64,000 nucleotides of DNA from an uncultured Gammaproteobacteria bacterium (GCA_963805435.1 CAWDUG010000001.1:199145-263144); one strand, 5' to 3'. Positions 3,472-60,483 are shown, counted from the stretch's first letter. A program made the numbers and translations. Notes: generated from the letters alone by a model not told the origin.

Positions 3472-3691
3472 CGACTGGTCTGATAGGTGGCGGGCGCGTG
3501 CGCCGGGCGATCCGGTCCGCCGCGCCCCTCGCTCTCGACGAAGCAGGGGCACGACTGTATTTTGACCGAGCACGAGCGGCGATGGAACGGAGGTCGGAAG
3601 TGTGGCGAGCACGGAAAAAAACTTCGATTCTCGCGAGCGGAGGCCTCTGGGGCATGCAGGACGGCTCGGGTCGACAGTCGGAGGAGGCCGC

Positions 3692-7579: not shown

Positions 7580-8002
7580 TTATTCGGTCGCCGGCGCGCC
7601 GGTGCCGGGCGAGGTGATGAACAGCCGCTTGCCGTCCGGCAACGTCACGTCGCGGCCATTGGCGGCGTTCGAGCCGTTGCGGTGGCGGTAGCCGAAGACC
7701 ACGACTTCGGTGCCGGGCGGGATCGAGTCGCGCGTCATGCCGCGGCGCACGAGCGTGTTCGGGCTGCCGGCTTCGATCATCCAGCTCTCGACGGTGCCGT
7801 CGTCGCGCTTGACGTCGAGATGGATGAACGCGTGCGGATTGATCCACTCGACGCGCGTGATCGTTCCCTTGAGCGTGATGGGCTGCTTCGCATCGAACTC
7901 AGTCGAGAAGGCGTGATGCGCACCCGCAGCTCCCACGAGCGTCAGCAAGACGCCGCCGAGCGTCACGCCAAGGATGTTTCTCAGTAGCGCTCTTGCTTTC
8001 AT
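7580..8002 (-). CDS. small secreted HH-protein (DUF6152-like), copy 2
   Basis: MKARALLRNILG...GAAGA followed by HHAFSTEFD, then TRVEWINPHAFIHLDV. Its ATG (8000-8002) overlaps the TGA (7999-8001) of the upstream partner gene. Confidence 0.8.
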   Translation of the reverse strand: MKARALLRNILGVTLGGVLLTLVGAAGAHHAFSTEFDAKQPITLKGTITRVEWINPHAFIHLDVKRDDGTVESWMIEAGSPNTLVRRGMTRDSIPPGTEVVVFGYRHRNGSNAANGRDVTLPDGKRLFITSPGTGAPATE

Positions 8003-8973
8003 CGCTTGCCCTCCGCTGCCTTTCGCTCCTCTTCGCGCATCGCCGACAGGAGCCCTCGCATTCCGTAGTTGCCTTCGTGGCATGCGTACTCGACCATTTG
8101 TCCGCTCTGCGGATGCATGAAGATCTCCACGGTCCAAGGCGTCGTGAACACGGGGTCGTACACGGTCGCGCGATAACGGATCTGATCGGGTGCAGTGCGC
8201 GTGAATTGCTCCACGACGCGAAATTTGTCGCTCACGAGCGAGTCGAGCATTTGCACGCCGTAGTAATGTCGATTCGGTTTCTGGTTGGTCGTCTCGACGA
8301 CGAGCGTGTCGCCTTCCCATTTGCCGCGCGAGTCGCCGACCCATTGCGTGATGCGATTCGGGAAGTGGGCGCGGCCGTCGATCGGCACGATTCGCACCTC
8401 GTGATTCAGCTCGGCCATGATCGTGACGTAGTCCGGCGTTTGCACGATGTAGTAATTGTTGTTGTACGGCTCGGGCAGCATCGGTGCGTGTCCACCGCCG
8501 AAACCGATGCAGCGTTCCGTCAGATAGCGGTCCTCTGGCGTATCGGCCGGGTGCGCGGCGGCGTAGGCCACATCGCGGTCGAACTCGCGCTGCGCCGCGG
8601 CCGTGAACGGCGGCACGCGCCCGCTCTTGGGGTCGACGATCAGCGACGTTCGCCGCGTGGGCACGACGTCGTTGCCGCGGTCCATCCACGCGTCGTTGTA
8701 GGACCCGACGTTGCCGGCCGTCTTGTCCTGCTCGATGTTCTCGTCGCCGCTCTGCGCGGCGAGCCGCCGTTTCACGTACGCCTTGGCTTCCGCCGCCGTG
8801 AAGAACTCCTTGTCCTTGAGCTCGGCCGGGCGCTGCAACGGCGTCAGCGTCGCGTTGGACCAGGTTCCCTGCAGATCCGGGTCGCCCCACGGCGTGCGCG
8901 CCGGTTGTGCGCCGGCGAAAGGGCTCGCAAGTGCCAGCGGCAGCGCGATCATCACGAGCGAGTACGGTCTCAT
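7999..8973 (-). CDS. secreted two-Cys partner protein, copy 2
   Basis: Signal peptide ...FAGAQ. Motifs: PDLQGTW, ERCIGFG, RIVPIDGR, GKWEGDTLVVETT, EQFT and YACHEGN. Confidence 0.8.
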   Translation of the reverse strand: MRPYSLVMIALPLALASPFAGAQPARTPWGDPDLQGTWSNATLTPLQRPAELKDKEFFTAAEAKAYVKRRLAAQSGDENIEQDKTAGNVGSYNDAWMDRGNDVVPTRRTSLIVDPKSGRVPPFTAAAQREFDRDVAYAAAHPADTPEDRYLTERCIGFGGGHAPMLPEPYNNNYYIVQTPDYVTIMAELNHEVRIVPIDGRAHFPNRITQWVGDSRGKWEGDTLVVETTNQKPNRHYYGVQMLDSLVSDKFRVVEQFTRTAPDQIRYRATVYDPVFTTPWTVEIFMHPQSGQMVEYACHEGNYGMRGLLSAMREEERKAAEGKR

Positions 8974-8986
8974 GTCTTTCTCCTCG

Positions 8987-9745
8987 TCACTTCGGCCGCT
9001 TGTACAGATCGCCGTAGAGCAGTTCTTCGGTGAACGGCACGCACTTGAACTCCATCAGATGCGCGTGGCTGTCGGCATTCCTGAACAAGCGAAAGTGCAT
9101 CGACCACGGCCGGGAGAACGTCATCGGGTCCTCGAGCGTGGCCGAATAGTCGATCGCGTCGGGGCCCGCCGGAGTGTAGCGCTCCACCACGTGCAGCGCC
9201 GCGCTCGCGTGATTGCCCGCGCGATCGAGCCAGGCGAGCCCGTTGAAACCGCTCACGTCCACGACGAGCGTATCGCCGTCCCAACGCGCGTTCGACACGC
9301 CCATCCAGCTGTCGATCGCGGAGGGCTCCGGTTTGCCGAGGTTGATGATACGAGCGGTGCCGGCGAACTGATACGCGAAGAGCATGCGGCCATCCGAATG
9401 AAAGATCTGCAGCGGATACGGCATGTAGTTCGCACGCGGTACGCCGGGCATGAAGCATTTGACCTCGGGGTCTTCTTTCCAGCGATTCTCGTAGTTGCGC
9501 CGTTGCTGCTCGGCGGCTGCGGGCAGGTACGGAATTTCGTCGCCGTCGACGATGCCGTAGCCGGGCGGCGTCGCGAGCAGCGCGCCGTACTCGGGCGGGC
9601 CCGCGCTCGCGCCGTGTGTCAGGAGGTTCCAGTTGGCCGTCGTCGTTGCCTGCCACACACCGCTGAAGTTCGGTTTGCCGTTCGCGAGCCGCGGAAGGTC
9701 GCTCGCGCGCGAGCCTTGCGCGTGCGCGTTCGCGGCGAGCAGCAC
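8987..9745 (-). CDS. secreted two-Cys partner protein, copy 3; signal peptide probably disrupted by an indel
   Basis: Motifs: KPNFSGVW, KCFMPGVP, ARWDGDTLVVDVSGF, ERYT and FKCVPF. An ATG at 9778-9780 opens MRSTLAAS in another frame, which would complete a signal peptide (..TLCVLLAANAHAQ) if one indel near ~9755 is corrected. Confidence 0.75.
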   Translation of the reverse strand: MLLAANAHAQGSRASDLPRLANGKPNFSGVWQATTTANWNLLTHGASAGPPEYGALLATPPGYGIVDGDEIPYLPAAAEQQRRNYENRWKEDPEVKCFMPGVPRANYMPYPLQIFHSDGRMLFAYQFAGTARIINLGKPEPSAIDSWMGVSNARWDGDTLVVDVSGFNGLAWLDRAGNHASAALHVVERYTPAGPDAIDYSATLEDPMTFSRPWSMHFRLFRNADSHAHLMEFKCVPFTEELLYGDLYKRPK

Positions 9746-9792: not shown

Positions 9793-11059
9793 TCAGTCGT
9801 GTGCAGGCTCGATTCGCAGAATCGAGCCGTTGGGTGTGAGCTTGGTGCTGCCGGGGCCGGATTGTCCGTCCCTTTCGACCGCCAGATAGAGGTTGCCGTC
9901 CGGACCTTGGCGCACGTCGCGCACGCGCGCGTCGAGCGACACGAGCATCGATTCGCGGCGCTCGAGTTGCGGCGGCGGCTGATCGAACGCGACGCGCAGC
10001 AACTGCTGGCCGCTCAGCGCTCCAATGAAGTAGTGGCCGCGCCAGAGCGGGAACTTATCGCCGGTGTAGATCATGAGGCTCGATGGGCTGATGGCGGGTA
10101 CCCAGAACATCACGGGGTTGTCCATGCCGGGTCGCGACCACGGCTGGTCCGAGGCGAGATGCCCGGTGTAGATCTTGCCGAGCGACACGAGTGGCCAGCC
10201 GTAGTTGTGCCCCGGAACGAGACGGTTCAGCTCGTCGCCACCCATCGGGCCGATCTCGGTAGCCCAGAGCTCGCCGGTTTGCGGATGCCAGGCGAGCCCC
10301 TGCACGTTGCGGTGGCCGTAGGTATAGATCTCGGGCTTGGCGTCCTTGCGGCCGACGAACGGATTGTCCGGGGCTGCGGTGCCGTCGTCGCGCAGCCGCA
10401 GAACCTTGCCGACGTGGGTATTGAGATCCTGCGCGAGCATGCGGTAGCTCGGGTTGTCGGTCGTGTTGCCGGCGTCGCGGTCGCCGACCGTCAGATAGAG
10501 CATCCGGTCGGGCCCAATCTCCAGGCGGCCGGCGGTCGCGCCCGTGCCCCAGGCGTCGGCGACGAACACGTCCTGCACGGCCTCGAGCGACGTGCCGTCG
10601 AACTTACCGCGCGCGAGCGCGATCGTCGTGTCGCCGCCGTCGCGCTGTTTCACGTACGAGAAATACAGCTGTTGGTTGCGCGCGAAATCCGGATGCAGCA
10701 CGACGGAGTTCATGCTGCGCGCATGCAGCGCATCGGCGGGCCAGCCGGCGACCGGTTTCGGCATCGAGCTTCCCGCCGCGCACGATGCGCAGGTCGCCGG
10801 GGAGCTCCGTCACGAGCATGTCGGTGCCGCCCGGCAGAAACGTCAGGTGCCAGGGCCGCACGAGCCCGTAGGCGACGGTGACGACGTGAATCCGCACGAG
10901 CTCGCCCGGTGGGCAGCCGCCGTGCGGCGAGCCGTTCGGCGAACAGGGGCCCGGCGTGTGGGTGTCGAACGTCCAGCTGGCGTTGTCGTCCTGCGCGCGG
11001 ACGAGCGGGGCCGCACACAACGCAGCGGCCGCGAGCATGATCGATCGAACCTGCAGCAT
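9793..11059 (-). pseudogene. PQQ-dependent sugar dehydrogenase (sGDH/YliI type), one frameshift
   Basis: C-terminal ORF 9793..10764 has YTYGHRNVQGLAWHPQTGELWATEIGPMGGDELN and NYGWP blocks typical of soluble aldose/sorbosone dehydrogenases. The N-terminal part (MLQVRSIML...signal...[15 protein letters not shown]) is in another frame, with the junction near ~10759. Confidence 0.8.
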
Positions 11060-11242: not shown

Positions 11243-12629
11243 TTGACGTACGGGCGCCGTCCTCGACGGGGGGTAATGATGAACGATCGCACGCTACGCT
11301 CGTGGTTTCTGCTGGCGTTACTGGCACTCGCGCAGGGCTGCACGCCGACCGCGCCACCCACTGCAGCCGCGAGCCCGCCCTCGCCGGCAGCGCCCGACCC
11401 GCTCGTGTTCGACACCTGGGTGCCGGGCCCGTGCTCGCCGAACGGTCAGCCGCAAGGCCAGTGCCCGCCGGGAGATCTGTTCCGCGTGCGCCTCGTCCCG
11501 GTGGCCGAAGGGCTCAGGAGCCCGCGCCACATCGCGTTCACGCCGGACGGCGATCTCCTGATCACCGAGCTTGCGGCGCCGGCGGGAGACCCCGGCGGGC
11601 GGCAATCAATCCGTGCAGGGTCAACCTGGCCGCGTGCGTATCGTGCATGCCGGAGTGCTCGCGTCAGAGCCACTCGCGGGTTGGCCCGCGCCGGGCATCA
11701 CGGCCGGCGCGTTGTGGTCGATCGTCGTGCACCCGCAGTTCGCGGCGAACCACCTCGTGTACCTGTACTACGTCAAGAAGCGCGACGGGATGTCGACGCG
11801 CGCGCTCGCGCGCGCGCGCCTCGAGGGCACTTCGCTGCTCGACGTGCAGGAGATCTTCGAAGCCGACGCGTGGATTCCGGGCGGGCCGATGGCGGGCCGC
11901 GCCGTCTTCGGGCCCGACGGCATGATCTATCTGACGGTGAACGATCACGTCGAGCACGACTACAAGAACGGCGGCGGCGAGCCGCTGCTCGCGCAACAGC
12001 TCGACAACGACATCGGCAAGGTCTTGCGTCTGCGCGACGACGGCGGCATTCCGGCCGACAACCCGTTCGTCGGGCGCAAGGGTGCGAAACCCGAGATCTA
12101 TACCTTCGGGCAGCGCAACGTGACGGACTTCGCCTGGCATCCGGAGACGGGCGAGCTCTGGACCACGGAGATCGCGCCCATGGGCGGCGACGAGATCAAC
12201 ATCCTGCACGCCGGGAAGAACTACGGTTGGCCGCTCGTATCGCTCGGCAAGAACTACAACTTGAAAGAGATGAACGACAACCACTGGTACCGGCCGGGCA
12301 TGGAAATGCCCGTCATGTACTGGACGCCCGCGATCAGTCCGTCGACGTTGACGTGGTACACGGGCGACAAGCTCGCGCCGTGGAAGGGGCATCTGTTCGT
12401 CGGCGCGCTGAACGGCCAGACGCTCGTGCGCGTGGCGTTCGATCAGCCCATGCCGCAAGGCGAACGGCGCGATTCGCTGTTCATGTCGCTCGGCCGGCGC
12501 TGGCGCCACGTGGTTCAGGGGCCGGACGGCTATCTGTATGCGCTGACGGAGAAGCGCACGCTCGGTAGCCCTGCGGATCCGAACGACGCGACGAGCGGGG
12601 TCGTTTACCGCATCGAGCCGGCGCAGTAG
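11243..12629 (+). pseudogene. PQQ-dependent sugar dehydrogenase (sGDH/YliI type) lipoprotein, one frameshift
   Basis: N terminus ...LLALLALAQGC has a lipobox; the true start may be the MMNDRT codons at ~11276. The C-terminal ORF 11571..12629 has YTFGQRNVTDFAWHPETGELWTTEIAPMGGDEIN and NYGWP. Frame junction is at ~11600-11625. Paralogue of 9793..11059, including the shared PGPCSPNG-x-P-x-G-x-CPPG segment. Confidence 0.8.
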
Positions 12630-12657: not shown

Positions 12658-13035
12658 GTGACGCGAAATCTTCTGGCCCTCCTTGCGTTCGCGGCGCCCG
12701 CGTTCGGCCATCATTCGGAGACTGCTGAGTTCAATCCCGACACCCCGGTGAAGGTGACCGGCACGATCGTGAAGGTGGAGTGGCTGAATCCTCACGTGTG
12801 GTTCTATGTCGACGTGAAGGACGAGAAAGGCAACGTGACGACGTGGGGATTTGCCGGAGCGCCTCCCGGTTCCCTGATGCGCAGGGGCATCACGAAGGAA
12901 GTCTTGAAGATCGGCTCCGTCGTCAACGTCGAAGGTTCGCGCGCGAGGGACGGCTCGAACAACGCGTCGAGCCGAAGCGTGACGTTCGCCGACGGCAGAA
13001 ACGTGTTCACCGCCACGAACGAGGGTTCGCGATGA
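12658..13035 (+). CDS. small secreted HH-protein (DUF6152-like), copy 3
   Basis: GTG start. Signal ...APAFG followed by HHSETAEFN, then VKVEWLNPHVWFYVDV. Its TGA (13033-13035) overlaps the ATG (13032-13034) of the next gene. Confidence 0.75.
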   Translation: MTRNLLALLAFAAPAFGHHSETAEFNPDTPVKVTGTIVKVEWLNPHVWFYVDVKDEKGNVTTWGFAGAPPGSLMRRGITKEVLKIGSVVNVEGSRARDGSNNASSRSVTFADGRNVFTATNEGSR

Positions 13036-13803
13036 AACGCGTCTGGCCACGGGCGAGCGGTCTTTTGGCGGTCGCTCACGCTCGCTGCGATCGCGATCGC
13101 GAGGGCGCGAGGACGTGCCCCGCATGCCGGACGGCAAACCGGACTTTTCTGGTATCTACACGCAGCCTTCCACGGTGAACGCGACGGGCCCGCGCGGCAA
13201 TCTGATCTTCAACGCGGACAAGATGGCGCCTGTGAAGCCCGGCGCCGAAAGCCTGCTCTACGAGCCGCGCAACGGCGACCCGCGTCACGACGAGCCGCGC
13301 GCGATGTGCCTGCCGGCAGGGTTCCCCGACGGCATGCTGTACATTCTGCCGATTCAGATCGTCCAGAACCCGAACACCATCGTGATCATTCCCGAGCTGC
13401 AGCGCGCGGCGCGGATCATCCCGACCGATGGCCGCCCGCATCAGCGACGGGCATCGAGCCCACGTACTACGGCGATTCGGTAGGGAAGTGGGAAGGCGAC
13501 ACGCTCGTGATCGACAGCGTGAACTTCAAGCGCTGGATCCTGGACGACTACCACTACACCGACCCGACGAAGACGCGCTGGCACAGCGACGCGCTGCACA
13601 CGACCGAACGCTTGAAGCGCGACGGCGACAAGCTCCTCTACCAGATCACGATCGACGATCCGAAGATCTTCACGAAGCCGTTCTCGCAGGATTTCGTGCT
13701 GACGTTGCGCCGTGACTGGGAGCAGCTCGGCCTTCTCGAGTACGTGTGCGAGGAGAACAATCGCTGCGCGGGCGGGCACTGCCGCGCCTCGGACGCGCAG
13801 TAG
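13032..13803 (+). pseudogene. secreted two-Cys partner protein, copy 4, about three frameshifts
   Basis: MKRVWPRASGLLAV (frame 1), LTLAAIAIARA (frame 2) and VPRMPDGKPDFSGIY...CLPAGFP...RIIPTDGRPH (ORF 13115..13483), then GKWEGDTLVIDSVNF...ERL...YVCEENN (ORF 13306..13803). Junctions near ~13072, ~13108 and ~13440. Confidence 0.7.
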
Positions 13804-15199: not shown

Positions 15200-18100
15200 A
15201 TGCGCCTCTCGCACTTCTTCATCGACCGGCCGATCTTCGCGGCCGCGGTGTCGGTGGTCATCACGCTGACCGGGCGTCATCTCGTACCTCACGCTGCCGG
15301 TCGACCAGTATCCGAACATCGCGCCGCCCACGGTGTCGGTCAACGCGCTGTATCCGGGCGCCACGGCCGAGGAGATCGCGGACACGGTGGCCGCGCCGCT
15401 CGAGCAGCAGATCAACGGCATCAGCCGACATGCTGTACATGTCGTCCTCGTCCACGAGCGAGGGGCGCATGACGATCACCGTCACGTTCAAGAACGGCAC
15501 GAACGTCGACATCGCGCAGGTGGACGTGCAGAACCGCATCCAGTCGGTGCTGCCGCAGCTGCCGCAGACCGTGCGCGACCTGGGCATCACGGTGCGCAAG
15601 GGCTCGACCGGACATTCTGCTGATCGTGCACATGTTCGCCACCGATGCGAGCGTGGACCGCAAGTACATCGCGAACTACGCGAACCTGCAGGTGCGCGAG
15701 CGGCTGCTGCGCACGCCGGGCGTGGGCGACGTGAACATGAACGCCGCGCGCGACTACGCCATGCGCGTGTGGATCGATCCGGAGCGCGCGGCCGCGCGCG
15801 ACCTCACCGTGCAGGAAATCGTCGATGCGCTGCGCAACAACAACCTGCAGGTCGCCGGCGGCGCCATCGGCTCGCCGCCGTTCAACGACAACCCCGCCGC
15901 GTACCAGCTGAACATGCGCGCGCAGGGCCGGCTCGAAACGCCGGAGGAATTCGCGGACGCCATCATCAAGCGCGATGCGCAGGGCCGCGTCACGCGCATC
16001 GGCGACGTGGCGCGCGTGGAGCTCGGCGCGCAGAACTACGCGCGTCAACGCGTACAAGAGCCTGGATCCCGCCGTGTCGCTCAGCGTGCAACAGGCGCCG
16101 AACACCAACGCGCTCGAGACGTGGGACAACATCCGCAGCACGATGGAGGAGCTGAAGACCCAGTTCCCGCCGGGCGTGGCCTACGAGATCATCTTCAACC
16201 CCGTGGCGTTCACGCGCGCGGCCGTGGAGGCCGTGCAGGAGACGCTGCTCGAGGCCATGATCCTCGCGGTCATCGTGGTCATGCTGTTCCTGCAGCGCTG
16301 GCGCACGGCCATGATCCCGCTGCTCGCGATTCCCGTGTCGCTGATCGGCACGCTGACGGTCATGTCGGCGTTCGGCTTCTCGCTGAACAACCTGTCGATG
16401 TTCGGGCTCGTGCTGTCGATCGGCATCGTGGTCGACGACGCGATCGTCGTGGTCGAGAACGCGGAGCGGCACATTCGCGCCGGCATGGCGCCGCGCGACG
16501 CCGCGCATCTCACGATGGACGAGTGCGGCGGCGCGCTGATCGGCATCGCGCTCGTGCTCGTGGCCGTGTTCGTGCCCGACGGCGTTCATGGGCGGCATCG
16601 CCGGCGCGTTCTACAAGCAGTTCGCGCTGACGATCGCGTCGGCCACGGTGATCTCGCTGGTCGTGTCGCTCACGCTGTCGCCGGCGCTCGCGGCCGTGAT
16701 CCTGACGCCGCACGATGCCGTGCACCGCGCGCACGGCGCTTCGGTGCGCGGCTGCACGCGCTGGCCGAGCGCGCGAATGGCTGGCTCGAGCGGCTCTCCG
16801 GCCGCTTACGCGCGCCTCACGCGGCGCTGCGCTGCGCCATCGCGCGATGCTGATCGGCGCTGTACGCGCGGACTGGTCGTGCTCACGGCCTGGCGCGTGA
16901 TCGACACGCCGCGCGGCTTCGTGCCCGTCGCAGGACCAGAACGACGTACTGATCCAGATCACGATGCCGCCGGGCACGAGCCTCGCGCGCACCGATGCCC
17001 TCGTGCAGCAGGTGATTCCCGATCATCCTGGGCACGCCCGGCGTGTCGTCGGCCTCCGTGTATGCCGGCATGGGCGGCGGCAGCTTCAGCAACTCCACGA
17101 ACTGCGGGCCAGATCTTCGCGATCTTCGATCCGTTCGAGAAGCGCCTGCCGAAGGGGCAGACGTTGCCGGTCGATCGCGGCCGAGCTGCGCAAGCGGCTG
17201 TCCGCTTTCACGGCCGCCGAGATCCGCGTCGTGAACCCGGCTTCGGTGCGCGGCATGGGCAACGCCGGTGGCTTTCAGCATGATGGTCGAGGACCGCGGC
17301 GGGCTCGGGTTATCGCGCGCTCGAGGACGCGGTGCAGCGGCTCACGGAAGCGGCGCTCGAAGGACCCGGCCATCTCGCAGGCGTTCAGCGACTTCAACAC
17401 GCGCAACCCGACGCTCGATGCCGTGGTGGATCGCGACAAGGCCGAGATGCTCGGCGTGCCGGTGCGCAACATGTTCGGCACGCTGCAGACCTATCTCGCC
17501 GGCACGTACGTCAACAACATCAACATGCTGGGCCACACGTTCCAGGTGATCGCGCAGGGCGACGCCAGCTACCGCCAGGACGCAGGAATGGGTGGGGCAG
17601 CTGAAGACGCGCTCGGCGTCCGGCGCCATGGTGCCGATCAGCGCGATCGCGAAGCTGCAGCCCGCCACCGCGCCGTATCGCGTGGTGCGCTACAACCTGT
17701 ATCCCGCCGCCGACATCCAGGGCGACACGGCCGCCGGCCATTCGTCCGGCGAAGCGATGGCCGCGATGGAGCGCATCGCGCGCGATACGCTGCCGGCCGG
17801 CATGAGCTTCGAGTGGACGGGCATCGCCTACCAGCAGCGCTTGTCCGGCGACGCCGGCGGGCTCGCGTTCGTCGCTCGGCGTGGTGTTCGTGTTCATCTT
17901 CCTCGCGGCGCTGTACGAGAGCCTGACGCTGCCGCTGGCCGTGATCCTGATCGTGCCGATGTGCCTGCTCGCCGCGATCCTCGGCGTGAACCTGCGCGGC
18001 CTCGACAACAACATCCTGACGCAGATCGGCATGGTGGTGCTGATCGGCCTCGCGGCGAAGAACGCGATCCTGATCGTCGAGTTCGCGCGCCAGGGCGAGG

Positions 18101-18390
18101 AGCACGGCTTGAACAGCGTCGACGCCGCGATCGCGGCCGCGAAGACGCGGTTGCGCCCGATCCTGATGACGTCGGCCGCGTTCATCTTCGGCGTGATTCC
18201 GCTCGCGTTCGCCAGCGGCCCCGGCGCGGAGCTGCGCCAGGCGCTCGGCGTGGGCGTGTTCTACGGCATGATCGGCGTGACCGTGTTCGGCCTCGTGTTC
18301 ACGCCGCTGTTCTACGTGCTGAGCCGCAAGCTCGCGCCAGCGCTTCTCGCGCGAGTCGCACGTGCCGCGCGTGCGTGTAGCGGGCGATAA
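15200..18390 (+). pseudogene. RND (HAE1, AcrB/MexB-like) efflux transporter, ten or more frameshifts
   Basis: [25 protein letters not shown] at 15200, then collinear AcrB-like segments that switch frame repeatedly. Examples: [90 protein letters not shown] and LPLAVILIVPMCLLAAILG...LIGLAAKNAILIVEFA. Stop at 18388-18390. Confidence 0.8.
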
Positions 18391-18470
18391 GCCCTCGGGC
18401 GGATCCGGTGGCACGTTGGCCGTTCGGCCGGCGAGCCCCGAGTGAAGTGCGGCGCGAGCGTGCAACGCCG

Positions 18471-23068: not shown

Positions 23069-24511
23069 GTGAAGTTCACTCAACGTCTCTGGACAACCGC
23101 TACCGCGGCATGCCTTGCGACCAGTTTCGCTGCGCCCGTCATTGCACAGCAGGTCGCGGACCCCGGCTTCAAGAGCGTGGGCCGCGGCGCGCCCGTGGCG
23201 GCGGCTATGCCCACGGTGACACTCCAGCTCGGACCACGGGCTGCAAACGTGGATCCCGCGGAGACGCAGCGGTCCATGGAAGTGGTAAACCGCGTGTTCG
23301 TCGGGCCGTTTGCGTTCGGCCCCGTGCGCGTCGTCGCCGCGCAAGACGGCGCCGTGCCGGCGGGCGTGCAGGCGCTACCGACCGACCTGTTCACGTCGAA
23401 GGACTTCTACTCCGATCGCGCGCTGTGGACCGACAAGCGCTACTTCCGCTGCAACAGCCCGCTCGCGCTCGAGTCGCAACGAGGCGCGATCGGGGGCGGG
23501 CTGATCGGTAAAGATCCGCCGCGCACAGCTGCGTGGGGATATTGCGATCGCGATTACCCGCGCGAAGGCATCGTGAGTCCCTACAAGTTCAAGACCGCGC
23601 AGGAGCACTACGAAGCGTTGCTCGCGGAAACGAAGAAGCGCGGCGGCCCCACGCAGCACACGTATGCCACCGTTCCGGGCGACGTGAACGGCCGCTACGC
23701 GCCGGGCGGCTTCTTCGATAACTGGTATTCCGCGATGCTCGCGGTGCAGCTCCCGACCGTGCTGTCGGTGCTGACGCCGGAATATCAGAAGCGCTTCGTT
23801 CAGGATATGTACCACCAGGGCAACACGAACGCGCCGCAGTGGCCGTCGCAGTACTGCTGGCCCGAGGGGTTCATGCGGCGCTGGTACTCGGCCGCCATCC
23901 AGTTCCCGCAGACCGTGATCGTGACGCCGTCGCTGTTTCACATCGAAGCCGGCGTCGCCGACAACTTCATCACGAACGTCTACATCGGCCGCACGTTCAA
24001 CATGGAGGATGTCGCGAAGGGCGGGGTCCCTCGCCTGGGCCCGGCGGTGCCGCGCTGGTACGGCGAGACGATCGGCTTCTGGGACAAGGACGCACTCATC
24101 ACGTGGACGTCGAACATCCAGGGCTGGGCCGGCCACGGCGTGTTCGAGTTCTCGAGCAAGCTGCAGACGATCGAGATCTACACGCCGGTGCGCGACCAGG
24201 CGGGCAAGGTTACGGCGCTGAACCACGAGTCCGTGTTCTACGACCCGGAAGCGTTCGTCGAGCCGATCCGCATCGTCCGCAACTACCGGCGGCTCTCCGG
24301 CTTCGAGGAAGGGGATCCTCCGCCCTTCATCGAATGCATTGCGACGATCTTCCCGATCAAGGGGCACTCGACGCCGGTGAGCCCCGGCACGACGATCGAG
24401 TACGAAGTGCCGGACATGTTCGGCCGGCCGTGGGCCCACCTCTGGGAGGAGTACTTCGAGAAGGGAATGAAGCGGCCCGACGAGAAGGACATCTTCGACT
24501 TCAGCAAGTGA
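23069..24511 (+). CDS. secreted uncharacterised protein, large paralogue B
   Basis: GTG start. Signal peptide ...FAAPVIAQQ. Collinear with the 3692..5080 product, sharing [35 protein letters not shown] and [24 protein letters not shown]. Confidence 0.75.
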   Translation: MKFTQRLWTTATAACLATSFAAPVIAQQVADPGFKSVGRGAPVAAAMPTVTLQLGPRAANVDPAETQRSMEVVNRVFVGPFAFGPVRVVAAQDGAVPAGVQALPTDLFTSKDFYSDRALWTDKRYFRCNSPLALESQRGAIGGGLIGKDPPRTAAWGYCDRDYPREGIVSPYKFKTAQEHYEALLAETKKRGGPTQHTYATVPGDVNGRYAPGGFFDNWYSAMLAVQLPTVLSVLTPEYQKRFVQDMYHQGNTNAPQWPSQYCWPEGFMRRWYSAAIQFPQTVIVTPSLFHIEAGVADNFITNVYIGRTFNMEDVAKGGVPRLGPAVPRWYGETIGFWDKDALITWTSNIQGWAGHGVFEFSSKLQTIEIYTPVRDQAGKVTALNHESVFYDPEAFVEPIRIVRNYRRLSGFEEGDPPPFIECIATIFPIKGHSTPVSPGTTIEYEVPDMFGRPWAHLWEEYFEKGMKRPDEKDIFDFSK

Positions 24512-25379: not shown

Positions 25380-26424
25380 TCAGTGTTCGCCGGCCGTCAG
25401 GTGGCGTCGCGCGGTGGCCGGATCGCAGAGGTACTCCTGCAGCTTGTAGCCGGCGTTCAAGTTGAAGCGCTGCTCGTCCGTCACCGGCTTCGCGAGGTAC
25501 TCGGGGTCCGTCATCGTGAAGTGCAGCGTCAATCCGCGGCCGTCGTCGCTCAGCGTGTAACGCTCGACGGTCGTCTTGCGCTCGCTCGAGTCGACGCCTC
25601 GGCCGTTACCCCAGCGCACGGGCGCGAACTTCGCCGTCTCGATCACGAGCTCGCCGTTCTCGAGCCGGCCGATCGAGTGGCCGAGCGGCGAGGGCGCCAC
25701 GGCGGTCGGATGGGACGCCATGTTCAGATGCACGACGCGCTTCAGCTCGTTGACCTCGTAGTGGATCTCGAGCGTGTCGGCATTCGGCCGCGTGATCTGG
25801 AACGGATACGGGTAGCCCAGGATCTCCGGCATCGTCTGCGGTGAGCAGTCCCACTCGGGGTTGCTGATCGGGGTCGAAGTGATCGAGCTCGGCCTGACCC
25901 TTGGCCGTGACCGGCAGCGTGTTCACGACCACGGTGTCGGGGCGGTTGCGCCCGAGCACGTCGCCCTTGAACTGAATCCGCCACACGCCGGTGAAATCCG
26001 TCGACTTGGCCGCCAATTGCTCCGCGGAGGGCTTTGGTGGGGAGGTGAGTTGGGGGCCGCCCCAGGCCCAGATGTCCTTGCCGTCTCTGATGAACAGGTT
26101 CGCGTAAATGAAGTGCCGCTCGGCGTTCCGATCCGGGTTGCCGCGCGCGACCACGCGGTCGCCCTGCTTCAGCGTGTCGGGCGTCCAGCCGAACCGCATG
26201 AGCACCGGCGTGGAGTTCAGCTCGAACGTCCACTGCTCGACCGGGCCGTCGCCCTTTCTGCCTTCCACCACCGCGTAGGCGTGGGGATTGCGCCACGAGA
26301 ACTCCTTGACCGTACCCGTGATCTCGACCGTGGAGTCGAGATCGAAGTTCGCACGCGAGTGATGGGCGAGGGCGGGAGCTGCGACGAAGGCTGTCGCGAA
26401 TGCTGCAAGGGTGTGGGCACGCAT
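25380..26424 (-). pseudogene. fusion of HH-protein (DUF6152-like) and two-Cys partner domains, one frameshift
   Basis: N-terminal part: MRAHTLAAFATAFVAAPALA, then HHSRANFD...FSWRNPHAYAVVEG. Then TDFTGVW (partner N-terminal motif). After an indel in a C run near ~25853 comes EWDCSPQTMPEILGYPYP...GRLENGELVIETAKF...ERYT...YLCDP (ORF 25380..25832). Confidence 0.75.
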
Positions 26425-26514: not shown

Positions 26515-27408
26515 ATGGCCAACATCATCAAGACCCACACGCTGCAACGGCGCAAACTGTTCGCGATCCTTGCGGCGGCGCCGCTGCTCGCGTCCCAGGC
26601 TGCGCGTGCGCTCGAGCCCGGAATCCGGCAGGGCAAGATCAAGCAGAGCGTCATGCCGTCCGTCTGGGGGAGCTTGAAGCTCAGCATCGAGGAGCGTTGC
26701 GAGGTCCTCGCCGCGCTCGGCTTCGCGGGCATGGATCTGCCGGCGCCCGATGAGATTCCCGTCCTCAAGAAGTACGGCCTCGCGCCGGCCATGATGGTGG
26801 GCACGGGCACGACGTTTCAGGACGGGCTGATCCGCCGCGAGCTGCACAACAAGATCGAGGAAGCGACGCGAGCCGGCATCGACCTCTGCGCAGAAGTCGG
26901 TTGCCGAAACCTCATCGCGCTACCGGGAGAGCGCCGCGGCATGTCGCGCCAGGAGGGCGCCGACAACGCTGTCGCGATTTTGAAGCGCATTGCGCCGTAC
27001 GCCGAACGCAAGGGCGTGTACGTCAGCATGGAGATCACGAACTCGAAGGTGCCGGGCGACAATCGCACGGACCAGGTATTCAACGACGTCAATTGGGGCT
27101 TCGACGTGTGCCGCCGGACGGGCTCTCCGAACATCAGGATCGTGTACGACATGTACCACGTGCAGATCATGAACGGCGACGTCGTGCGCACGATGCGCGA
27201 CAATCTCGGCCTCATCTGCCACGTGCACGTCGCCGGCGTGCCGACGCGCGGCGAGATCGATCACAACGAGCTCGACTTTCGCTACATCGCGCAGCAGATC
27301 GTCGACATGGGCTACGACGGTTTCGTCGCGCACGAGTGGCGGCCGAGCGCAGGAAGAAATCCGCTGATCGATCTTGCGATCGCCTACGACATCTTGACCG
27401 TGACTTGA
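26515..27408 (+). CDS. Tat-exported sugar phosphate isomerase/epimerase (xylose-isomerase-like TIM barrel)
   Basis: MANIIKTHTLQRRKLFAILAAAPLLASQAARA is a twin-arginine signal. MEITNSK, YDMYHVQIMNGD, HVHVAG and VAHEW blocks are typical of hydroxypyruvate-isomerase-like TIM barrels. Confidence 0.75.
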   Translation: MANIIKTHTLQRRKLFAILAAAPLLASQAARALEPGIRQGKIKQSVMPSVWGSLKLSIEERCEVLAALGFAGMDLPAPDEIPVLKKYGLAPAMMVGTGTTFQDGLIRRELHNKIEEATRAGIDLCAEVGCRNLIALPGERRGMSRQEGADNAVAILKRIAPYAERKGVYVSMEITNSKVPGDNRTDQVFNDVNWGFDVCRRTGSPNIRIVYDMYHVQIMNGDVVRTMRDNLGLICHVHVAGVPTRGEIDHNELDFRYIAQQIVDMGYDGFVAHEWRPSAGRNPLIDLAIAYDILTVT

Positions 27409-34243: not shown

Positions 34244-35071
34244 CTAGCGCGACGGCGGCGTCAGGATGAACTTGCCGTCGACGATGGGGTTGCGCTCCTC
34301 GCCTTCGCAATCCTCGTACACCATGCGGTGGATCTGCGTGACGCGCTGATACGTGCGCTTCATGTGCCAGGGTCCGGTGAGATTCTTGGGATCCACGATC
34401 GTGATTTCATTCTCCAGCAGATCCTTGTTCAGCATTCGGATGCGTTCGGTGAAGTGCGCGTCCGCGCTCAGGAACGCGATCATCTGCGATTCCTCGATGC
34501 CGCCGAAGGCGATCACGGCCGAGCCTTCGCGTCCCGGAAAGGCCGACTTCACCGCGATGGTATCGATGACGAGCGTCGCACCTTCCCAGTGGCCGATCGA
34601 ATCGCCCCAGGGCGTCGGCCACAGGTCGTCCTTGCCAGGGTGCTCGCGCCCATCCGTATACACGTGGCGGATCTCGCGGCTCGAGAAGATCAGCGCCGTC
34701 TCGTTCGGCGTCGGTAGAATCTCGAACATCAACGGCGACTCGAGCATCACCGTGGGATAGCCGAACGTGCAGGCCGTCACGGCGCCGCCCGGGTCCTTCC
34801 CTTGCCGCATGGCTTCCATGGCCGCACGCTGCCCCGCGACCACTCTGTCGATGACCGCTTGCGACTCGGGTCTAAGCGGCGGTGACCACTCGAGCTCTTT
34901 AAGCACCTGCTCGAGCGGCTCGTAGAACCCGCCGTCCGGGCTCGGCGTGGCGCCGACGTTCTCCCATTGGCCGCTCCAGTCCGGCAGCGGTGCTGGCGCC
35001 GGTGCGCACGCCACTGCCGCGCACGCGAGCAGCAGAGCCGCGGCGGCGCGTACCGAGAAACGCCCGCTCAC
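34244..35071 (-). CDS. secreted two-Cys partner protein, copy 5
   Basis: Lipoprotein-like signal ...LLLACAAVAC. Motifs: PDWSGQW, ACTFGYP, GHWEGATLVIDT, ERI and YEDCEGEE. The GTG start (35069-35071) overlaps the TGA of the upstream HH-protein gene. Confidence 0.75.
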   Translation of the reverse strand: MSGRFSVRAAAALLLACAAVACAPAPAPLPDWSGQWENVGATPSPDGGFYEPLEQVLKELEWSPPLRPESQAVIDRVVAGQRAAMEAMRQGKDPGGAVTACTFGYPTVMLESPLMFEILPTPNETALIFSSREIRHVYTDGREHPGKDDLWPTPWGDSIGHWEGATLVIDTIAVKSAFPGREGSAVIAFGGIEESQMIAFLSADAHFTERIRMLNKDLLENEITIVDPKNLTGPWHMKRTYQRVTQIHRMVYEDCEGEERNPIVDGKFILTPPSR

Positions 35072-35469
35072 TTGCGCGGCTCCGGTCGCGCGGGCGGTGC
35101 GCTGCCGATCAGGGGGCCGCCCGGCCCGATGCCCGAAAGGTACTGGCCGCCATGGTCGCCATCAACGAGGGGATGGATGTTCAGCGTGACCTGCTCGCCG
35201 GGCTTCAACGTGCCCGGTCGCCACCCGGTTCGCGCCAGGTGCTCGGGGCTGGTCATCTCGATGCTCCACTCGTCTTCGGCGCCTTGGGCGTTCTTCACGA
35301 GCACCTGGATGAAGACGTGCGGGTTGGTCCAGCGGAGCTCCTTGACGGCGCCTTGCAGCGTGACCGTCTTCGACTGGTCGAACATGGCGAACGAGTGATG
35401 CGCGAGGGCGGAGCCTGCTGCGAGCAGGATCGCGACGGCGATGGAGGCGCGATTTCGCAGTGTGCTCAT
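35068..35469 (-). CDS. small secreted HH-protein (DUF6152-like), copy 4
   Basis: MSTLRNRASIAVAILLAAGSALA followed by HHSFAMFD, then KELRWTNPHVFIQVLV. ATG at 35467-35469. Confidence 0.8.
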   Translation of the reverse strand: MSTLRNRASIAVAILLAAGSALAHHSFAMFDQSKTVTLQGAVKELRWTNPHVFIQVLVKNAQGAEDEWSIEMTSPEHLARTGWRPGTLKPGEQVTLNIHPLVDGDHGGQYLSGIGPGGPLIGSAPPARPEPRK

Positions 35470-36341: not shown

Positions 36342-37655
36342 CTAGATCTGCAGCCGCCCCGTGCTCGCCCCGATCGAGTCGCAGCGCGCATTCGCGATAT
36401 CCGCGAACGCCACGAGCAGGTTCGCGGTCGGCTCCTTGTGGTCGACCGTGATGTGCCGGCCGCCCTTGAGCCGGCCGTTCGCGCCACCGAGCAGCACCGC
36501 GGGCGGGCTGTTGCGGTCGTGGGCGTTGCCGTTGCTCATGCCGGCACCCCAGTAGACGAGCGATGCGTCGAGCAACGTGCCGTCGCCGTCCGGCGTGGCC
36601 TGAAGCTTGCCGACGAACTCGGCGAATTTCGCGATCTGGTAGGTCACGAGCTTCGCGTACTTTTCGATGCCCTCCGGTTTGTCGCCGTGATGCGAGACCG
36701 GGTGATGCGGCTCGGGGATGCCGATGTGCGCGTAGCTGCGGCTGCTGCCCTCGTGACCGAGCATGAACGTGAAGACGCGCGTGATGTCGCCCTGGAACGC
36801 GAGATGCAACAAGTCGTACGTGACGGTCAGGTGATCGTCGAAGTTGTCCGGAATGCCGACGGGCGCATCGGGCGCAGCCGCGATCGTGTCCGAGCGCGTC
36901 TGCATCTTCTGTAGCGATTCCTCCACGCGGCGCACGTTCGTCAAGTACTCGTCGAGCACGGCGTTGTCGTGGCTGCCGAGCTTGCGCTCGAGGCGCGAGG
37001 TCTCGTCGGCGACCGAATCCAGGATGCTCTGCTTCCGGCGCAAGCGCGCCAAGCGCTGCTGCGCACTGCCAGGGTCGCCGAACATGCGCTCGAACGTGAC
37101 CTGCGGGTTGATGGCAACCGGCAGCGGACTCGTGTCGTCGCGCCACGCGAGCGTGTTGAAGAACACGCACGGGAAGCCGTCGCACGCGCCGGCAGCCGTG
37201 CCCATGTCCTCGGTACCGACTTCGAGCGAGCGCAGCGGCGTGTCTTCGGCCACCGCGTCCGCGATGAACTGGTCGACAGTCTTCTTCGACTCGATCTTGC
37301 CGTAGCTGCCCGCCGTGTTGACGGGACCAACGCCGTTCAGGAACGCGGCGCTCGCGCCGAGATGCACGGAGCCATCGGGCGCCTTCAGCTTGCTGATCGT
37401 GACGAGGCGCTCGCGATACGGCTCGAGCGGCTTCATGATCGGCTGGAAGTCGAACCCCGTGCCGACCTTCGTCGGATGCCAGAGCTGCGGATACACGCCG
37501 TTCGGCATGTAGATCGCGCCGAAGCGCAGCGGCCGCTTCGCGCTCGACTGGCCGAATGCCGGCAGCATCGAGTCGAGCAGCGGCAACGCGACCGCGACGC
37601 CGGCGCCGCGCAGGAAGGTACGGCGGTGCAAGTGCTTCTTCGTGATGAACGTCAT
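36342..37655 (-). CDS. DUF1552 domain protein (Tat signal), copy A
   Basis: MTFITKKHLHRRTFLRGAGVAVALPLLDSM twin-arginine signal. Contains HHPVSHH and GAGMSNGNAHD blocks. Lies directly downstream (2-nt gap) of a DUF1592-type gene, the known pairing for this family. Confidence 0.8.
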   Translation of the reverse strand: MTFITKKHLHRRTFLRGAGVAVALPLLDSMLPAFGQSSAKRPLRFGAIYMPNGVYPQLWHPTKVGTGFDFQPIMKPLEPYRERLVTISKLKAPDGSVHLGASAAFLNGVGPVNTAGSYGKIESKKTVDQFIADAVAEDTPLRSLEVGTEDMGTAAGACDGFPCVFFNTLAWRDDTSPLPVAINPQVTFERMFGDPGSAQQRLARLRRKQSILDSVADETSRLERKLGSHDNAVLDEYLTNVRRVEESLQKMQTRSDTIAAAPDAPVGIPDNFDDHLTVTYDLLHLAFQGDITRVFTFMLGHEGSSRSYAHIGIPEPHHPVSHHGDKPEGIEKYAKLVTYQIAKFAEFVGKLQATPDGDGTLLDASLVYWGAGMSNGNAHDRNSPPAVLLGGANGRLKGGRHITVDHKEPTANLLVAFADIANARCDSIGASTGRLQI

Positions 37656-37657
37656 GG

Positions 37658-40054
37658 CTACTCCCTCGTTTGCGCCACGGTGCTGAGCGCTTCCGGTTCG
37701 GCGAATTTGGTTCGCATCTGGAACGGCAGACTGTCGACAACGCCTAGAACGATAGCCGACAGTCGATAGTCGTCCTTTGCGGCGTTTCGCACAATGGTGC
37801 GAACGACGGGCATGTCCGCGGGGGTCAGACCGCGGCCCAATGCATAGATCAGGAGCTTCTCGGCTACGGTGCTCGCGAAGATGTCGGGCTTGGCCGTGAG
37901 CGCGGCCCGCAGCGCCACGGGGCCGTCGACGGCCGTGCCATCCGCGAGGATGCCCGCCGCGTCGATCGGCAGGCCGTCGATCGTCCGGTCGTGCCATTGG
38001 CCGACGGCGTCGAAGTTCTCGAGCGCGAAGCCCAAGGGGTCCAAGTTCCGGTGACAGGCGGCGCACGTCGGGTTCCTGCGGTGCAGCTCGAGCTGCTCAC
38101 GCACGGTCGACGGCCGGTCCTTCGGTTTGCTGTCCTCGAGCGCGGGCACGACGGCCGGCGGTTGCGGCGGCGGGCTGTTCAAGATGTTCGCCATGACGTA
38201 CTTGCCGCGGATGATCGGCGACGTGCGCGTGGCCGCGGAGGTGAGCGACAGGATGCTGCCGTGACCGAGCAGCCCGCGCCGCTGCGGGTCCGACAACGCG
38301 ACCTTCCGGAAGCGCGACCCGTAAACGCCCGGGATGCCGTAGTGGCGCGCCAGCCGCTCGTTCACGAACGTGTAGTCCGCCGTCAGTAGCTCGAGCACGC
38401 TGCGGTTCTCGCGCAGCACGTGGCCGAACAGCTGCTCCGTCTCGCGGCGAAACGCCTTTCTCAAGTTGTCGTCGAAATCCGGGAACATCAGCAGATCGGG
38501 CACCACCCGCTGCTCGAGGTTGCGCAGCTGGAGCCACTGGCCCGTGAAGTTCTCGACGAGCGCGTCGGCGCGTGGATCGGCAAGCATCCGGCGCACTTGC
38601 GCCTCGAGCTCGCGCGGCTTCGACAAATCGCCGTCGATCCCGAGCTTGAGGAGCTCGTCGTCCGGGATGCTCGACCAGAGGAAGAACGATAGCCGCGACG
38701 CGAGCTCGACGTCGCTGACTCGGTGCGCAGAGCCGGCCGGCAGGTCCGCGGCGTCGCTCTCGGCGCGAAACAGGAACGACGGGCTCACGAGCATCCGCGA
38801 GAGGCCCGCGCGGATGCCGCTGTCGAAGTTCCCGCCTTCCTCGCGTTCGCTGGCGTAGAACGATAGCGGTGCGGCGACGTCGTCGTCGTCCACGGGACGA
38901 CGGAACGCGCGTTTGGCGAGCGCCGCGAAGATGTCGTGCGCGCACGCCGGCTCCTCGGCGGGCGACGCGGGAGCGCAGACGAAGATCCGCGCGCGCGTAG
39001 GCGTGTCGCTCACGCCACGCACGTCGTACGGTCCCGCGACATTCGCCGTCTCGAGCCGCGGCAGGCCGGCCGGGTTGTGCGCCTCCTGCGAATCGCGCAG
39101 CGATGGCTGCCAAGCGTTCTGCTCGACCGCCGGCCGCTCGACCCACGTGAACGCGACCTCGTGCGGCCCCGCCATGATCGGAATACGCGGCGAGGTCATG
39201 CGTTCGTCGATCACGACGCGCGACGCGAGGATGTCGGCCGCGCTGCCCTTGTGGTCCTCGGGCCCGCCTACGAGCGCGGTGTAGACCTGCTCGCCGTCCA
39301 CGGCGATCACGAACTCGTACGGGGTATCGTGGCCTTCGACGCCGACGTAGCCCTCCGCCACCGTGCGCAGCAGCCGGCCCGAGAACACGTAGTCGGCGTC
39401 GGCCGGAAAGTTGTGCGTAACGACCGTGCCGCCGCGCGTGCCGAGCGGCAGGCCTTCGAGATGCGCTTCCTGCGTGACGTCGACCGGGATCTTGTAGGCC
39501 GCGTTGGTCGGCACCGCGTCGGGATTGCCGACGGCCGCATCCGCGATCCGCAGCGCTGCCGTGAGATAGCGCTCGAGCAGCAGCGGCGAGGTCGTGAGCA
39601 CGGCAGCGATGTTGTCGAACCCGAAGTCCCCGCCGTCGCTCGGCAAGAGCTCGGCAACGTTCATCTCGACGCCGAGCAGGTCGCGAATGGCGTTCGCGTA
39701 CTCGGCGCGGTTCAAGCGATGCACGGGTTGCCTGCCCGCGTACGGCGCGGCTGCGGCCGCGTCGTCGAGCGTGCGCTCGAGCGCAGTGGCGAAATCGTCG
39801 CGCAACGCGTGATCGGGTTGGGGCTCGTTGCGCGGCGGCATCATGCCGAGCCGGAGCTTCTTGATCGCGGCTTCCCAGATGCGGGCATCCTTCACGATGT
39901 TCTCGGGCCGCACGTGCTCGAACGAGATATCCGCCGTGAGCTCGGCGTCGTTGTGGCAGTCGACGCAGTACTTGTCGAGCATGGCCCAACGTTCGTGGAG
40001 CACCGTCTCGGGAGCGGATGCCGACTTCAGATACATCGCGACGCCCGCAGCCAC
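37658..40054 (-). CDS. DUF1592/DUF1587/DUF1595/DUF1588/DUF1585 multidomain protein with two CxxCH motifs, copy A
   Basis: YCVDCHN (39953-39967), LRLGMMPP, HRLNRAEYANAIRDLLGV, FGFDNIA, ELASRLSFFLWSS and TCAACHRNLDPLGFALENFD. A likely N-terminal TM segment (MRKSVLH, then IAGAGAVVAVAAG) begins at the ATG at ~40099 in another frame, so an indel near ~40078 is possible. Confidence 0.8.
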   Translation of the reverse strand: MAAGVAMYLKSASAPETVLHERWAMLDKYCVDCHNDAELTADISFEHVRPENIVKDARIWEAAIKKLRLGMMPPRNEPQPDHALRDDFATALERTLDDAAAAAPYAGRQPVHRLNRAEYANAIRDLLGVEMNVAELLPSDGGDFGFDNIAAVLTTSPLLLERYLTAALRIADAAVGNPDAVPTNAAYKIPVDVTQEAHLEGLPLGTRGGTVVTHNFPADADYVFSGRLLRTVAEGYVGVEGHDTPYEFVIAVDGEQVYTALVGGPEDHKGSAADILASRVVIDERMTSPRIPIMAGPHEVAFTWVERPAVEQNAWQPSLRDSQEAHNPAGLPRLETANVAGPYDVRGVSDTPTRARIFVCAPASPAEEPACAHDIFAALAKRAFRRPVDDDDVAAPLSFYASEREEGGNFDSGIRAGLSRMLVSPSFLFRAESDAADLPAGSAHRVSDVELASRLSFFLWSSIPDDELLKLGIDGDLSKPRELEAQVRRMLADPRADALVENFTGQWLQLRNLEQRVVPDLLMFPDFDDNLRKAFRRETEQLFGHVLRENRSVLELLTADYTFVNERLARHYGIPGVYGSRFRKVALSDPQRRGLLGHGSILSLTSAATRTSPIIRGKYVMANILNSPPPQPPAVVPALEDSKPKDRPSTVREQLELHRRNPTCAACHRNLDPLGFALENFDAVGQWHDRTIDGLPIDAAGILADGTAVDGPVALRAALTAKPDIFASTVAEKLLIYALGRGLTPADMPVVRTIVRNAAKDDYRLSAIVLGVVDSLPFQMRTKFAEPEALSTVAQTRE

Positions 40055-60435: not shown

Positions 60436-60483
60436 CGTTCGCCGGCACGGCGACGCTCGTTCCGTGAGCGGCGCGCTGCCGAT

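Follow-up and report, generated by a model that had tools for sequence, protein, structure and literature searches.

A Frame-Interrupted Gene Joining a DUF6152 Domain to a Partner-Family Barrel Domain in an Uncultured Gammaproteobacterium

A gene fusing two domains that are more often encoded separately lies on the minus strand, at 25380-26424, of a 64,000-nucleotide stretch of DNA from an uncultured Gammaproteobacteria bacterium (GCA_963805435.1, CAWDUG010000001.1:199145-263144), the whole of which is called the window here. Its N-terminal part is a secreted DUF6152 domain (Pfam PF19649), recognizable by two adjacent histidines, and its C-terminal part belongs with the partner proteins whose genes adjoin stand-alone DUF6152 genes. 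Fused proteins of this kind make up an established lineage, in which a single locus often holds several paralogues. The gene in the window is a damaged member of this already sequenced, uncharacterized family and, judged by alignment, differs from all of its relatives by one inserted base. As a whole, the locus is probably best explained as a single gene for a secreted protein in which DUF6152 is followed by a fatty acid-binding protein (FABP)-like barrel acting with its counterpart, the insert likely being an error.

The Fused Gene, Its Domains, and Its Lineage

The gene measures 1045 nt, a coding sequence of 1044 nt plus the extra base. It starts with an ATG at 26424, upstream of which lies a GAGGAG ribosome-binding site, and its N-terminal reading frame gives MRAHTLAAFATAFVAAPALA followed by HHSRANFD..., with signal-peptide cleavage predicted between the two. 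After ...HFDPDQ a one-base change of frame is needed, and translation then continues through ...PEWDCSPQTMPEILGYPYP... to TAGEH and a stop at 25380. An earlier note on this DNA had described one minus-strand unit holding both modules in order, as is indeed seen from 26424 to 25380. The repaired gene encodes a 347-residue secreted DUF6152 plus FABP-like-barrel protein.

The first 20 residues (26365-26424) read as a Sec-type signal peptide, with cleavage predicted between ALA and HH; His21 would accordingly be residue 1 of the mature protein. The DUF6152 (HH) domain that follows (26050-26364) is a predicted oligonucleotide/oligosaccharide-binding (OB)-like β-barrel, as indicated by the Pfam match, the modeled strands at residues 33-119, and OB-fold matches in the PDB. 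PF19649 matches residues 13-104 over profile positions 4-95 of 98 (E 2.5e-27), with 95.2 bits against a cut-off of 27; the signal peptide and complete HH-protein domain proposed earlier are both borne out. Conserved residues of this domain include H21, H22, S23, N46, P47, and H48; among 113 fused homologues the NPH motif (N46, P47, H48) is invariant and A20, H21, and H22 are conserved in at least 90%. The HH and NPH residues are likewise invariant in stand-alone DUF6152 copies, and in the alignments the only polar residues conserved across fused and stand-alone forms are the His-His pair after the cleavage site and the histidine of NPH. A linker rich in Pro, Ser, and Ala (residues 126-140, 26005-26049), variable in length and sequence among the homologues, leads to the second domain.

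This partner-type domain (residues 141-347, 25383-26004) is a predicted 10-strand FABP-like barrel with a helical insert after strand 1, assigned by profile comparison (hhalign), an AlphaFold model, and calycin and FABP matches in the PDB. Its invariant residues are G146, W148, C193, E223, R229, G248, S250, W271, E287, D306, C333, R340, and H341. A tblastn search of the window with the C-terminal half retrieved the stand-alone partner gene at 6718-7569 (E 3e-12) as well as 8987-9745, 13447-13752, and 34559-34747. For the profile comparison, the C-terminal domains of the 113 fused homologues formed one profile, and the stand-alone protein of 6718-7569, its database relatives, and three window paralogues formed the other. 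The two aligned over 193 columns with a probability of 99.6% (E 5.7e-25), from GxW through the first conserved Cys, G-x-S-x-G...LVxxT, ER, and DP to the last Cys, whereas two controls, the N-terminal domain against the partner profile and the C-terminal domain against the reversed partner alignment, gave 0.4% and 0.1%. Between the fusion and the protein of 6718-7569 themselves, the aligned signature motifs are the strand-1 GxW, C-x-P...P, G-x-S-x-G...LV(V/I)xT, ER, DP, and the C-terminal Cys. The fused clade alone ends in CDPxxxRRHL, with R340 and H341 invariant, in place of the CxExN of the partners. By profile comparison, then, the C-terminal domain belongs to the same very large, unnamed family as the adjacent-gene partners; the assignment made in the earlier note survived a comparison that could have shown the C-terminal half to be unrelated to them. 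That note had also placed a partner motif, TDFTGVW, in the linker. The motif does begin the partner-homologous domain, but it lies on strand 1 of the barrel (E146-151 in the AlphaFold model) and is not a linker motif.

Existing annotation reaches only part of this protein. Proteins annotated as PF19649 share its N-terminal domain, as judged by the Pfam score and the NPH motif, and whole-protein orthologues already carry that annotation; the Pfam model, however, covers only the first ~100 residues, so that neither the C-terminal 200 residues nor their relationship to the partners is annotated in Pfam or NCBIfam. Searches of both databases returned no model covering the partner family, and NCBIfam gave no match to the fusion, the partners, or the stand-alone DUF6152 proteins. 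No lipocalin or FABP match was found in Pfam for the fusion at E ≤ 1 or for four partners at E ≤ 0.1. Both families are large. A DUF6152 profile retrieved 17,346 clusters at 50% identity, the best 150 of which are mostly stand-alone proteins of 130-145 residues, and the partner family comprises at least 7,977 clusters at 90% identity (8,000 candidates scored).

A search for other fused architectures, proposed in the earlier note, found them in quantity. The repaired protein gave 344 database matches, including more than 110 intact full-length clusters of ~345-360 residues (88-38% identity, 100% coverage), all with PF19649; the named ones among them appear in NCBI and JGI as "DUF6152 family protein", and conservation runs along the whole length of the alignments. 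In GTDB, scanned with one genome per species, 220 relatives were found. Their hosts are metagenome-assembled genomes (MAGs) of unclassified Gammaproteobacteria, Rariloculaceae, Woeseiaceae, and Arenicellaceae, the gammaproteobacteria being of soil and marine origin, together with some Alphaproteobacteria (Euryhalocaulis, Rhodospirillaceae). Examination of 83 loci with a crude caller of open reading frames (ORFs) and hidden Markov models (HMMs) yielded 122 fused ORFs, of which two to four often lay next to one another, as well as 19 stand-alone DUF6152 and 26 stand-alone partner ORFs. In 121 of 123 cases the closest relative of a fused N-terminal domain also came from a fused protein, which places the fused proteins in one coherent clade, derived from one or a few old fusion events. 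Repeated recent accidents, or a quirk of the window, were rejected as origins of the fusion on the strength of this single clade and its intact homologues.

DUF6152 also occurs in other architectures (P0241, P0257, P0306, P0336; 316-residue ORFs of L059, L066, and L067). Tandem doublets have a second repeat with an internal HH or none. Elsewhere the domain is fused to an unrelated C-terminal domain of ~190 residues that resembles the N-terminal part of an α/β-hydrolase-linked protein of locus L053.

Separate Genes and the Functional Link

HMM searches of the six-frame translation located five DUF6152 domains in the window and six clear partner domains, the latter in the fusion, at 6718-7569, 7999-8973, 8987-9745, and 34244-35071, and in a frame-broken gene at 13040-13800. 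The claim that DUF6152 genes (H) and partner genes (P) are encoded separately four times in the window was correct, as all four pairs were found. One H gene (6194-6589, minus strand) is divergent from the P gene at 6718-7569 (plus strand), which encodes 283 residues with a signal peptide and was recognized by tblastn, HMM, and an AlphaFold2 model. The remaining sets comprise an operon on the minus strand (7580-9745) in the order P (8987-9745), P (7999-8973), and H (7580-8002), the start of H overlapping a P stop codon; H (12658-13035) followed by P (about 13040-13800, split over two frames) on the plus strand (12658-13800); and H (35068-35469) followed by P (34244-35071) on the minus strand (34244-35469), with overlapping stop and start codons. 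In three of the four separate pairs the genes thus run head-to-tail on the same strand, and the stop codon of the first overlaps the start codon of the second or nearly touches it. The fused gene, flanked on both sides by opposite-strand genes, stands alone.

How widely this adjacency holds was assessed in metagenome contigs scanned with stand-alone DUF6152 of the 35068-35469 type, a census that covers relatives of this type only and comprises 80 loci at 47-84% identity. A partner-domain gene lay within 600 nt of the DUF6152 gene in 59 of the 80, and the order H then P was seen in 41. Where at least 1200 nt was available on both sides, 29 of 31 loci had an adjacent partner: 18 with H before P on the same strand, 3 with P before H, and 8 divergent. 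One locus (L084) has the same divergent arrangement as 6194-6589/6718-7569, with a fused gene 600 bp away. Fusion together with near-obligatory adjacency in three orientations makes a good case that the two proteins work together, and on these genomic grounds they very probably do. Physical contact or a complex is probable as well. The one structural hint of it is the predicted template modeling score (pTM) of 0.81 of the two-domain model, which suggests a fixed arrangement of the domains. The Rosetta-stone argument of the earlier note is strengthened by the adjacency and the conserved fusion, its "complex" keeping the standing of a conjecture.

The wider neighborhood does not single out a process. 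Some 1,100 neighboring ORFs from the 83 loci were clustered, and no conserved operon partner hinting at a function was dominant among them; two of the top clusters were antisense ORF artifacts of the crude gene caller. The largest clusters, each present in at most 11 loci, were sulfatase, TonB-dependent receptor, aldo-keto reductase, cupin, metallo-β-lactamase (MBL)-fold hydrolase, and glucose/sorbosone dehydrogenase (GSDH). A small secreted cupin (~144 residues) adjoins the fused gene in 6 of 7 occurrences (Rariloculaceae; L023, L026-L028, L056), loci that may be orthologous, so that these counts are not independent.

The GSDH genes invite a specific reading, namely that the pair is an accessory or electron-accepting partner of periplasmic oxidoreductases, especially soluble glucose/sorbosone dehydrogenases dependent on pyrroloquinoline quinone (PQQ). 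The window holds two GSDH-type (PF07995) soluble PQQ sugar dehydrogenase paralogues, at 9793-10764 (minus strand) and 11571-12629 (plus strand), both directly upstream of H/P sets in the orders GSDH-P-P-H and GSDH-H-P, and in 3 of the 5 places where the GSDH cluster occurs in other loci, a family gene lies next to it. These numbers are small, however; a GSDH gene is absent from most H/P and fused loci, and the fused gene of the window sits by itself between opposite-strand genes. We regard this reading as improbable.

The Extra Base at 25863

The interruption is a single extra base at 25863, a C on the coding (minus) strand and a G on the plus strand, between codons Q187 and N188. The coding strand reads GATCAG, the extra C, and then AACCCCGAG, or in longer context GATCAG-C-AACCCCGAGTGGGACTGC. 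The reference for most comparisons was L004 (CAVSMD010000004.1), an uncultured gammaproteobacterial MAG that contains the closest genome locus and is partly syntenic with the window. In nucleotide alignment with it, 25863 is the sole indel inside the coding sequence. The base is missing in all 12 related loci compared, which read CAG/AAG/GAG/GAT AAC/AAT CC(C/G) G.. TGG and encode Q/K/E/D-N-P, and its removal restores the family consensus junction DPDQNPEWDC (not DPDQQPEWDC). The earlier note was right that there is one 1-nt interruption but had put it in a C run near 25853, whereas the insertion lies at 25863, outside that run. A slip in the run was rejected as its cause, since the C-run at 25857-25860 is identical in L003, L004, L005, and L008, and several relatives share AACCCCGAG.

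Apart from this base, the gene looks intact. The repaired coding sequence has the same length as the L004 orthologue, 1044 nt, with 92% amino acid identity and no other lesion anywhere in it. In the comparison of the window with L004, the ratio of nonsynonymous to synonymous substitution rates (Ka/Ks) comes to 0.13 before the shift and 0.10 after it; the downstream region, as judged by this ratio, is under purifying selection and has therefore not drifted. At least four other genes of the window are also frame-broken: an RND efflux pump, a PQQ-dependent dehydrogenase, a DUF1587-DUF1585 gene, and the partner gene at 13040-13800. From the low downstream Ka/Ks and these other broken genes it follows that the shift is most likely an assembly error and less likely the mark of a very recent pseudogene, and an assembly or sequencing error at 25863 is accordingly our favored explanation, held with good though not full confidence.

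Several points weigh against it. The sequence as assembled fits an assembly error and a real recent mutation alike, and the extra base lies outside any homopolymer. A nanopore error linked to Dam/GATC sites was considered as the cause of the indels and rejected: 4 of the 33 indels are close to GATC, the background being 14.6% (p 0.73), so that proximity to GATC does not explain the base at 25863 either. The RND gene of L004 is broken too, and the indels seen in that gene are hence not all attributable to the window.

If the insertion is real, the copy would be a freshly inactivated pseudogene of the fused family, whose product would be at most the secreted DUF6152 domain with an 82-codon out-of-frame tail to 25606 and without the partner domain. 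It would help this reading that long-read errors concentrate in homopolymers and this base is not in one, that the lineage has many paralogues of both families, making the loss of one copy cheap, and that a second family member, the partner at 13040-13800, is frame-broken as well. Against it stand a Ka/Ks as low after the shift as before, the lack of any further lesion across the 1044 nt, and the presence in 64 kb of at least four unrelated frame-broken genes, including an RND pump with coding-like substitutions, which fits an error-prone assembly better than a free-living bacterium. A pseudogene is therefore possible but clearly the less likely account.

Two further readings would leave the sequence as it stands. 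Overall, H and P are more often split than fused, and the two halves might be separately translated genes, a natural split of the fused gene. The first start in the frame of the C-terminal half, however, is an ATG at 25832, past the invariant Cys193, barrel strand 1, and the helical lid; that half has no signal peptide; the N-terminal half runs on for 82 codons out of frame; and once one base is taken out, the gene is again exactly colinear with more than 110 fused homologues. The earlier note had named a real shift between independent halves with their own starts as what would overturn the fusion; given the late ATG and the intact fused ORFs elsewhere, an independent C-terminal gene is effectively refuted and a natural split is very improbable. 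Alternatively, programmed +1 frameshifting or transcriptional slippage might bypass the shift and yield the full fusion. The intact downstream frame is all that speaks for this, whereas the extra base occurs in no relative, hence there is no conserved recoding site, and the sequence has neither a slippery run nor a 0-frame stop there. Programmed frameshifting was rejected for want of a conserved site among the relatives, and bypass of either kind is barely credible.

With an error still the favored explanation, the other frame-broken genes carry a caution for annotation: split ORFs in this window should not be taken as biology without the reads. The partner gene at 13040-13800 (plus strand), 3′ of H 12658-13035, occupies two reading frames, with indels relative to L004 at 13074, 13107, and 13444. 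In the RND efflux pump gene at 15600-18400 (plus strand), ACR_tran positions 267-448 and 873-1019 fall in separate ORFs and the middle lies in other frames. This gene has 19 frame-breaking indels relative to L004, 16 of them seen as insertions in the window, and its substitutions fall mostly in the GC-rich third-codon phase, which jumps at each indel; such an alignment has the pattern of recent or artifactual indels. A gene of DUF1587/DUF1595/DUF1592/DUF1588/DUF1585 type at 52430-54690 (plus strand) is spread over several frames, and an intact paralogue at 37658-40054 adjoins a DUF1552 (HXXSHH) gene at 36342-38066. The PQQ-dependent dehydrogenase at 58817-60467 (plus strand) likewise runs through several frames, with PF01011 positions 25-198 and 497-589 in separate ORFs.

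Predicted Folds and Candidate Functions

The AlphaFold model of the fusion (predicted local distance difference test (pLDDT) score 89, pTM 0.81) has one barrel at residues 33-119 and a second of ~10 strands at 146-322, the latter with helices inserted between its first two strands and short helices at the C-terminus; the N-terminus is modeled with a pLDDT of 45-74. Foldseek comparison with the PDB gave among the top 50 matches OB folds (the LysRS N-domain, SSB, OBody) and calycin-type barrels (UnaG, avidins, SAHS). For the stand-alone partner of 6718-7569 (pLDDT 82), the top 50 matches were all CRBP, CRABP, or FABP proteins, with a probability of ~1, template modeling (TM) scores of 0.5-0.6 on the target, ~12% identity, and E-values of 1e-3 to 3e-2. 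In these predicted models the order of secondary structure fits a 10-strand barrel with a helix-turn-helix between strands 1 and 2, the fold matches being weak, and a sequence search of the PDB with the family profile found nothing below E 0.25. As modeled, the partner is FABP-like in fold and not a sequence member of the FABP family. What the fusion would share with FABP, CRBP, CRABP, myelin P2, and UnaG is the predicted 10-strand barrel with its helical insert between strands 1 and 2; it departs from FABP-type proteins in that its barrel domain is ~60-70 residues longer, is secreted, and carries both a conserved pair of cysteines (C193/C333) and an E/R/E/D set of its own.

For the N-terminal domain, periplasmic metal and cofactor proteins offer the closest parallels. 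CusF (copper) and CcmE (heme) are periplasmic chaperones of the OB fold with the key histidine or histidines on or near a flexible terminal segment, and DUF6152 resembles them as a small secreted OB-like barrel with histidines near its terminus. The alignments, however, show no conserved Met, so that the His/Met/Met ligand set that CusF combines with a capping Trp is lacking, and no HxxxY as in CcmE; neither protein is among the top 50 fold matches of the fusion model. In histidine-brace copper proteins, such as the lytic polysaccharide monooxygenases, CopC, YcnI, and PmoB, copper is held by the N-terminal amine and two His side chains. The likeness here would be a histidine predicted at mature residue 1, in a conserved AxA-HH context, together with a distal conserved histidine. 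In contrast to those proteins, DUF6152 is OB-like and not Ig- or cupredoxin-like, it has a second adjacent histidine, and the HH of some tandem repeats is internal or missing. A precedent for the fusion itself is AdcA, a ZnuA-ZinT fusion and a classic Rosetta-stone case among periplasmic proteins, in which ZinT is a calycin-type barrel with a His-rich N-terminus. The parallel is one of two secreted proteins, separate in most genomes and fused in one lineage, which points to cooperation; the PDB sequence search and the top 50 fold matches revealed no relationship in sequence or fold to ZnuA or ZinT.

These parallels underlie the view that the pair is a metal-trafficking system like CusF or ZinT, with the barrel as a docking or metal-buffering module and not a ligand carrier. 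It would be in keeping with the conserved His triad on a periplasmic OB-like domain, with a weak, sub-threshold CcmE-like Pfam signal in the fusion (E 0.047), and with the general likeness to CusF, ZinT, and AdcA. The copy number, however, with five H genes and six or more P genes in 64 kb and as many as four adjacent fused paralogues in other genomes, far exceeds what metal homeostasis usually requires; no metal transporters or regulators recur among the neighbors examined, and CusF and ZinT are outside the top 50 fold matches. Metal trafficking is consequently an unlikely function for the pair.

Residues that hint at chemistry are H21, H22, and H48; C193 and C333; E223, R229, E287, and D306; and, in the fused proteins only, R340-H341-L. 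On this basis we put forward a working model, tentatively and as a weak one. In it, a putative metal site located at the N-terminus or close to it would be built from H21, H22, and H48 of the DUF6152 domain; a small hydrophobic or amphipathic ligand would sit in the barrel; and H and P together would form a single periplasmic unit for binding or chemically modifying the ligand, paralogues perhaps having different specificities within catabolic loci. The bolder version, in which DUF6152 and the FABP-like partner constitute an unrecognized, widespread periplasmic two-component module whose His-His metal center acts on or gates a hydrophobic barrel ligand, is more doubtful still.

A number of observations tell against this picture. 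The literature search gave no support for the mechanism: no paper was found containing "DUF6152", and none with "histidine brace" and "OB-fold" together. The tandem DUF6152 proteins, with second repeats that have an internal HH or none, disfavor a strict free N-terminal histidine. The structural matches in the PDB are of low significance (E about 1e-3) and involve folds that are very common. The neighbors are heterogeneous (sulfatase, GSDH, cupin, MBL-fold hydrolase, esterase, α/β hydrolases, TonB-dependent receptor), with none dominant.

If the module is as pictured, its members would be secreted metallo-lipid-binding proteins or small-molecule oxidases of a new class, and paralogy would have diversified them in Proteobacteria that degrade organic matter. 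The fused gene serves as a pointer, tying the uncharacterized Pfam domain DUF6152, with its more than 17,000 clusters, to a second family that lacks a Pfam or NCBIfam model. What is gained is a testable link between two large families. The pair can now be defined for co-expression, the fusion offers a natural single-chain version for structural work, and H21, H22, H48, C193, C333, R340, and H341 are candidates for mutation.

Some further genes of the window touch on the partner family or on the surroundings of the fused gene. Two secreted paralogues of 480-492 residues without a Pfam family, at 3602-5080 and 23069-24511 (both plus strand), contain a distant partner-like domain near residues 324-425 (HMM E 3e-5 and 1.5e-4). 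Orthologues of these proteins lie directly upstream of the fused gene in L062 and L071, and 23069-24511 is ~900 bp from the fused gene in the window. On the 5′ side of the fused gene, a 35-nt intergenic segment of L004 is missing at 26472. This gap falls within the divergent promoter region that separates the fused gene from a gene for a secreted xylose-isomerase-like TIM-barrel protein (26536-27408), which has an apparent twin-arginine-type signal.

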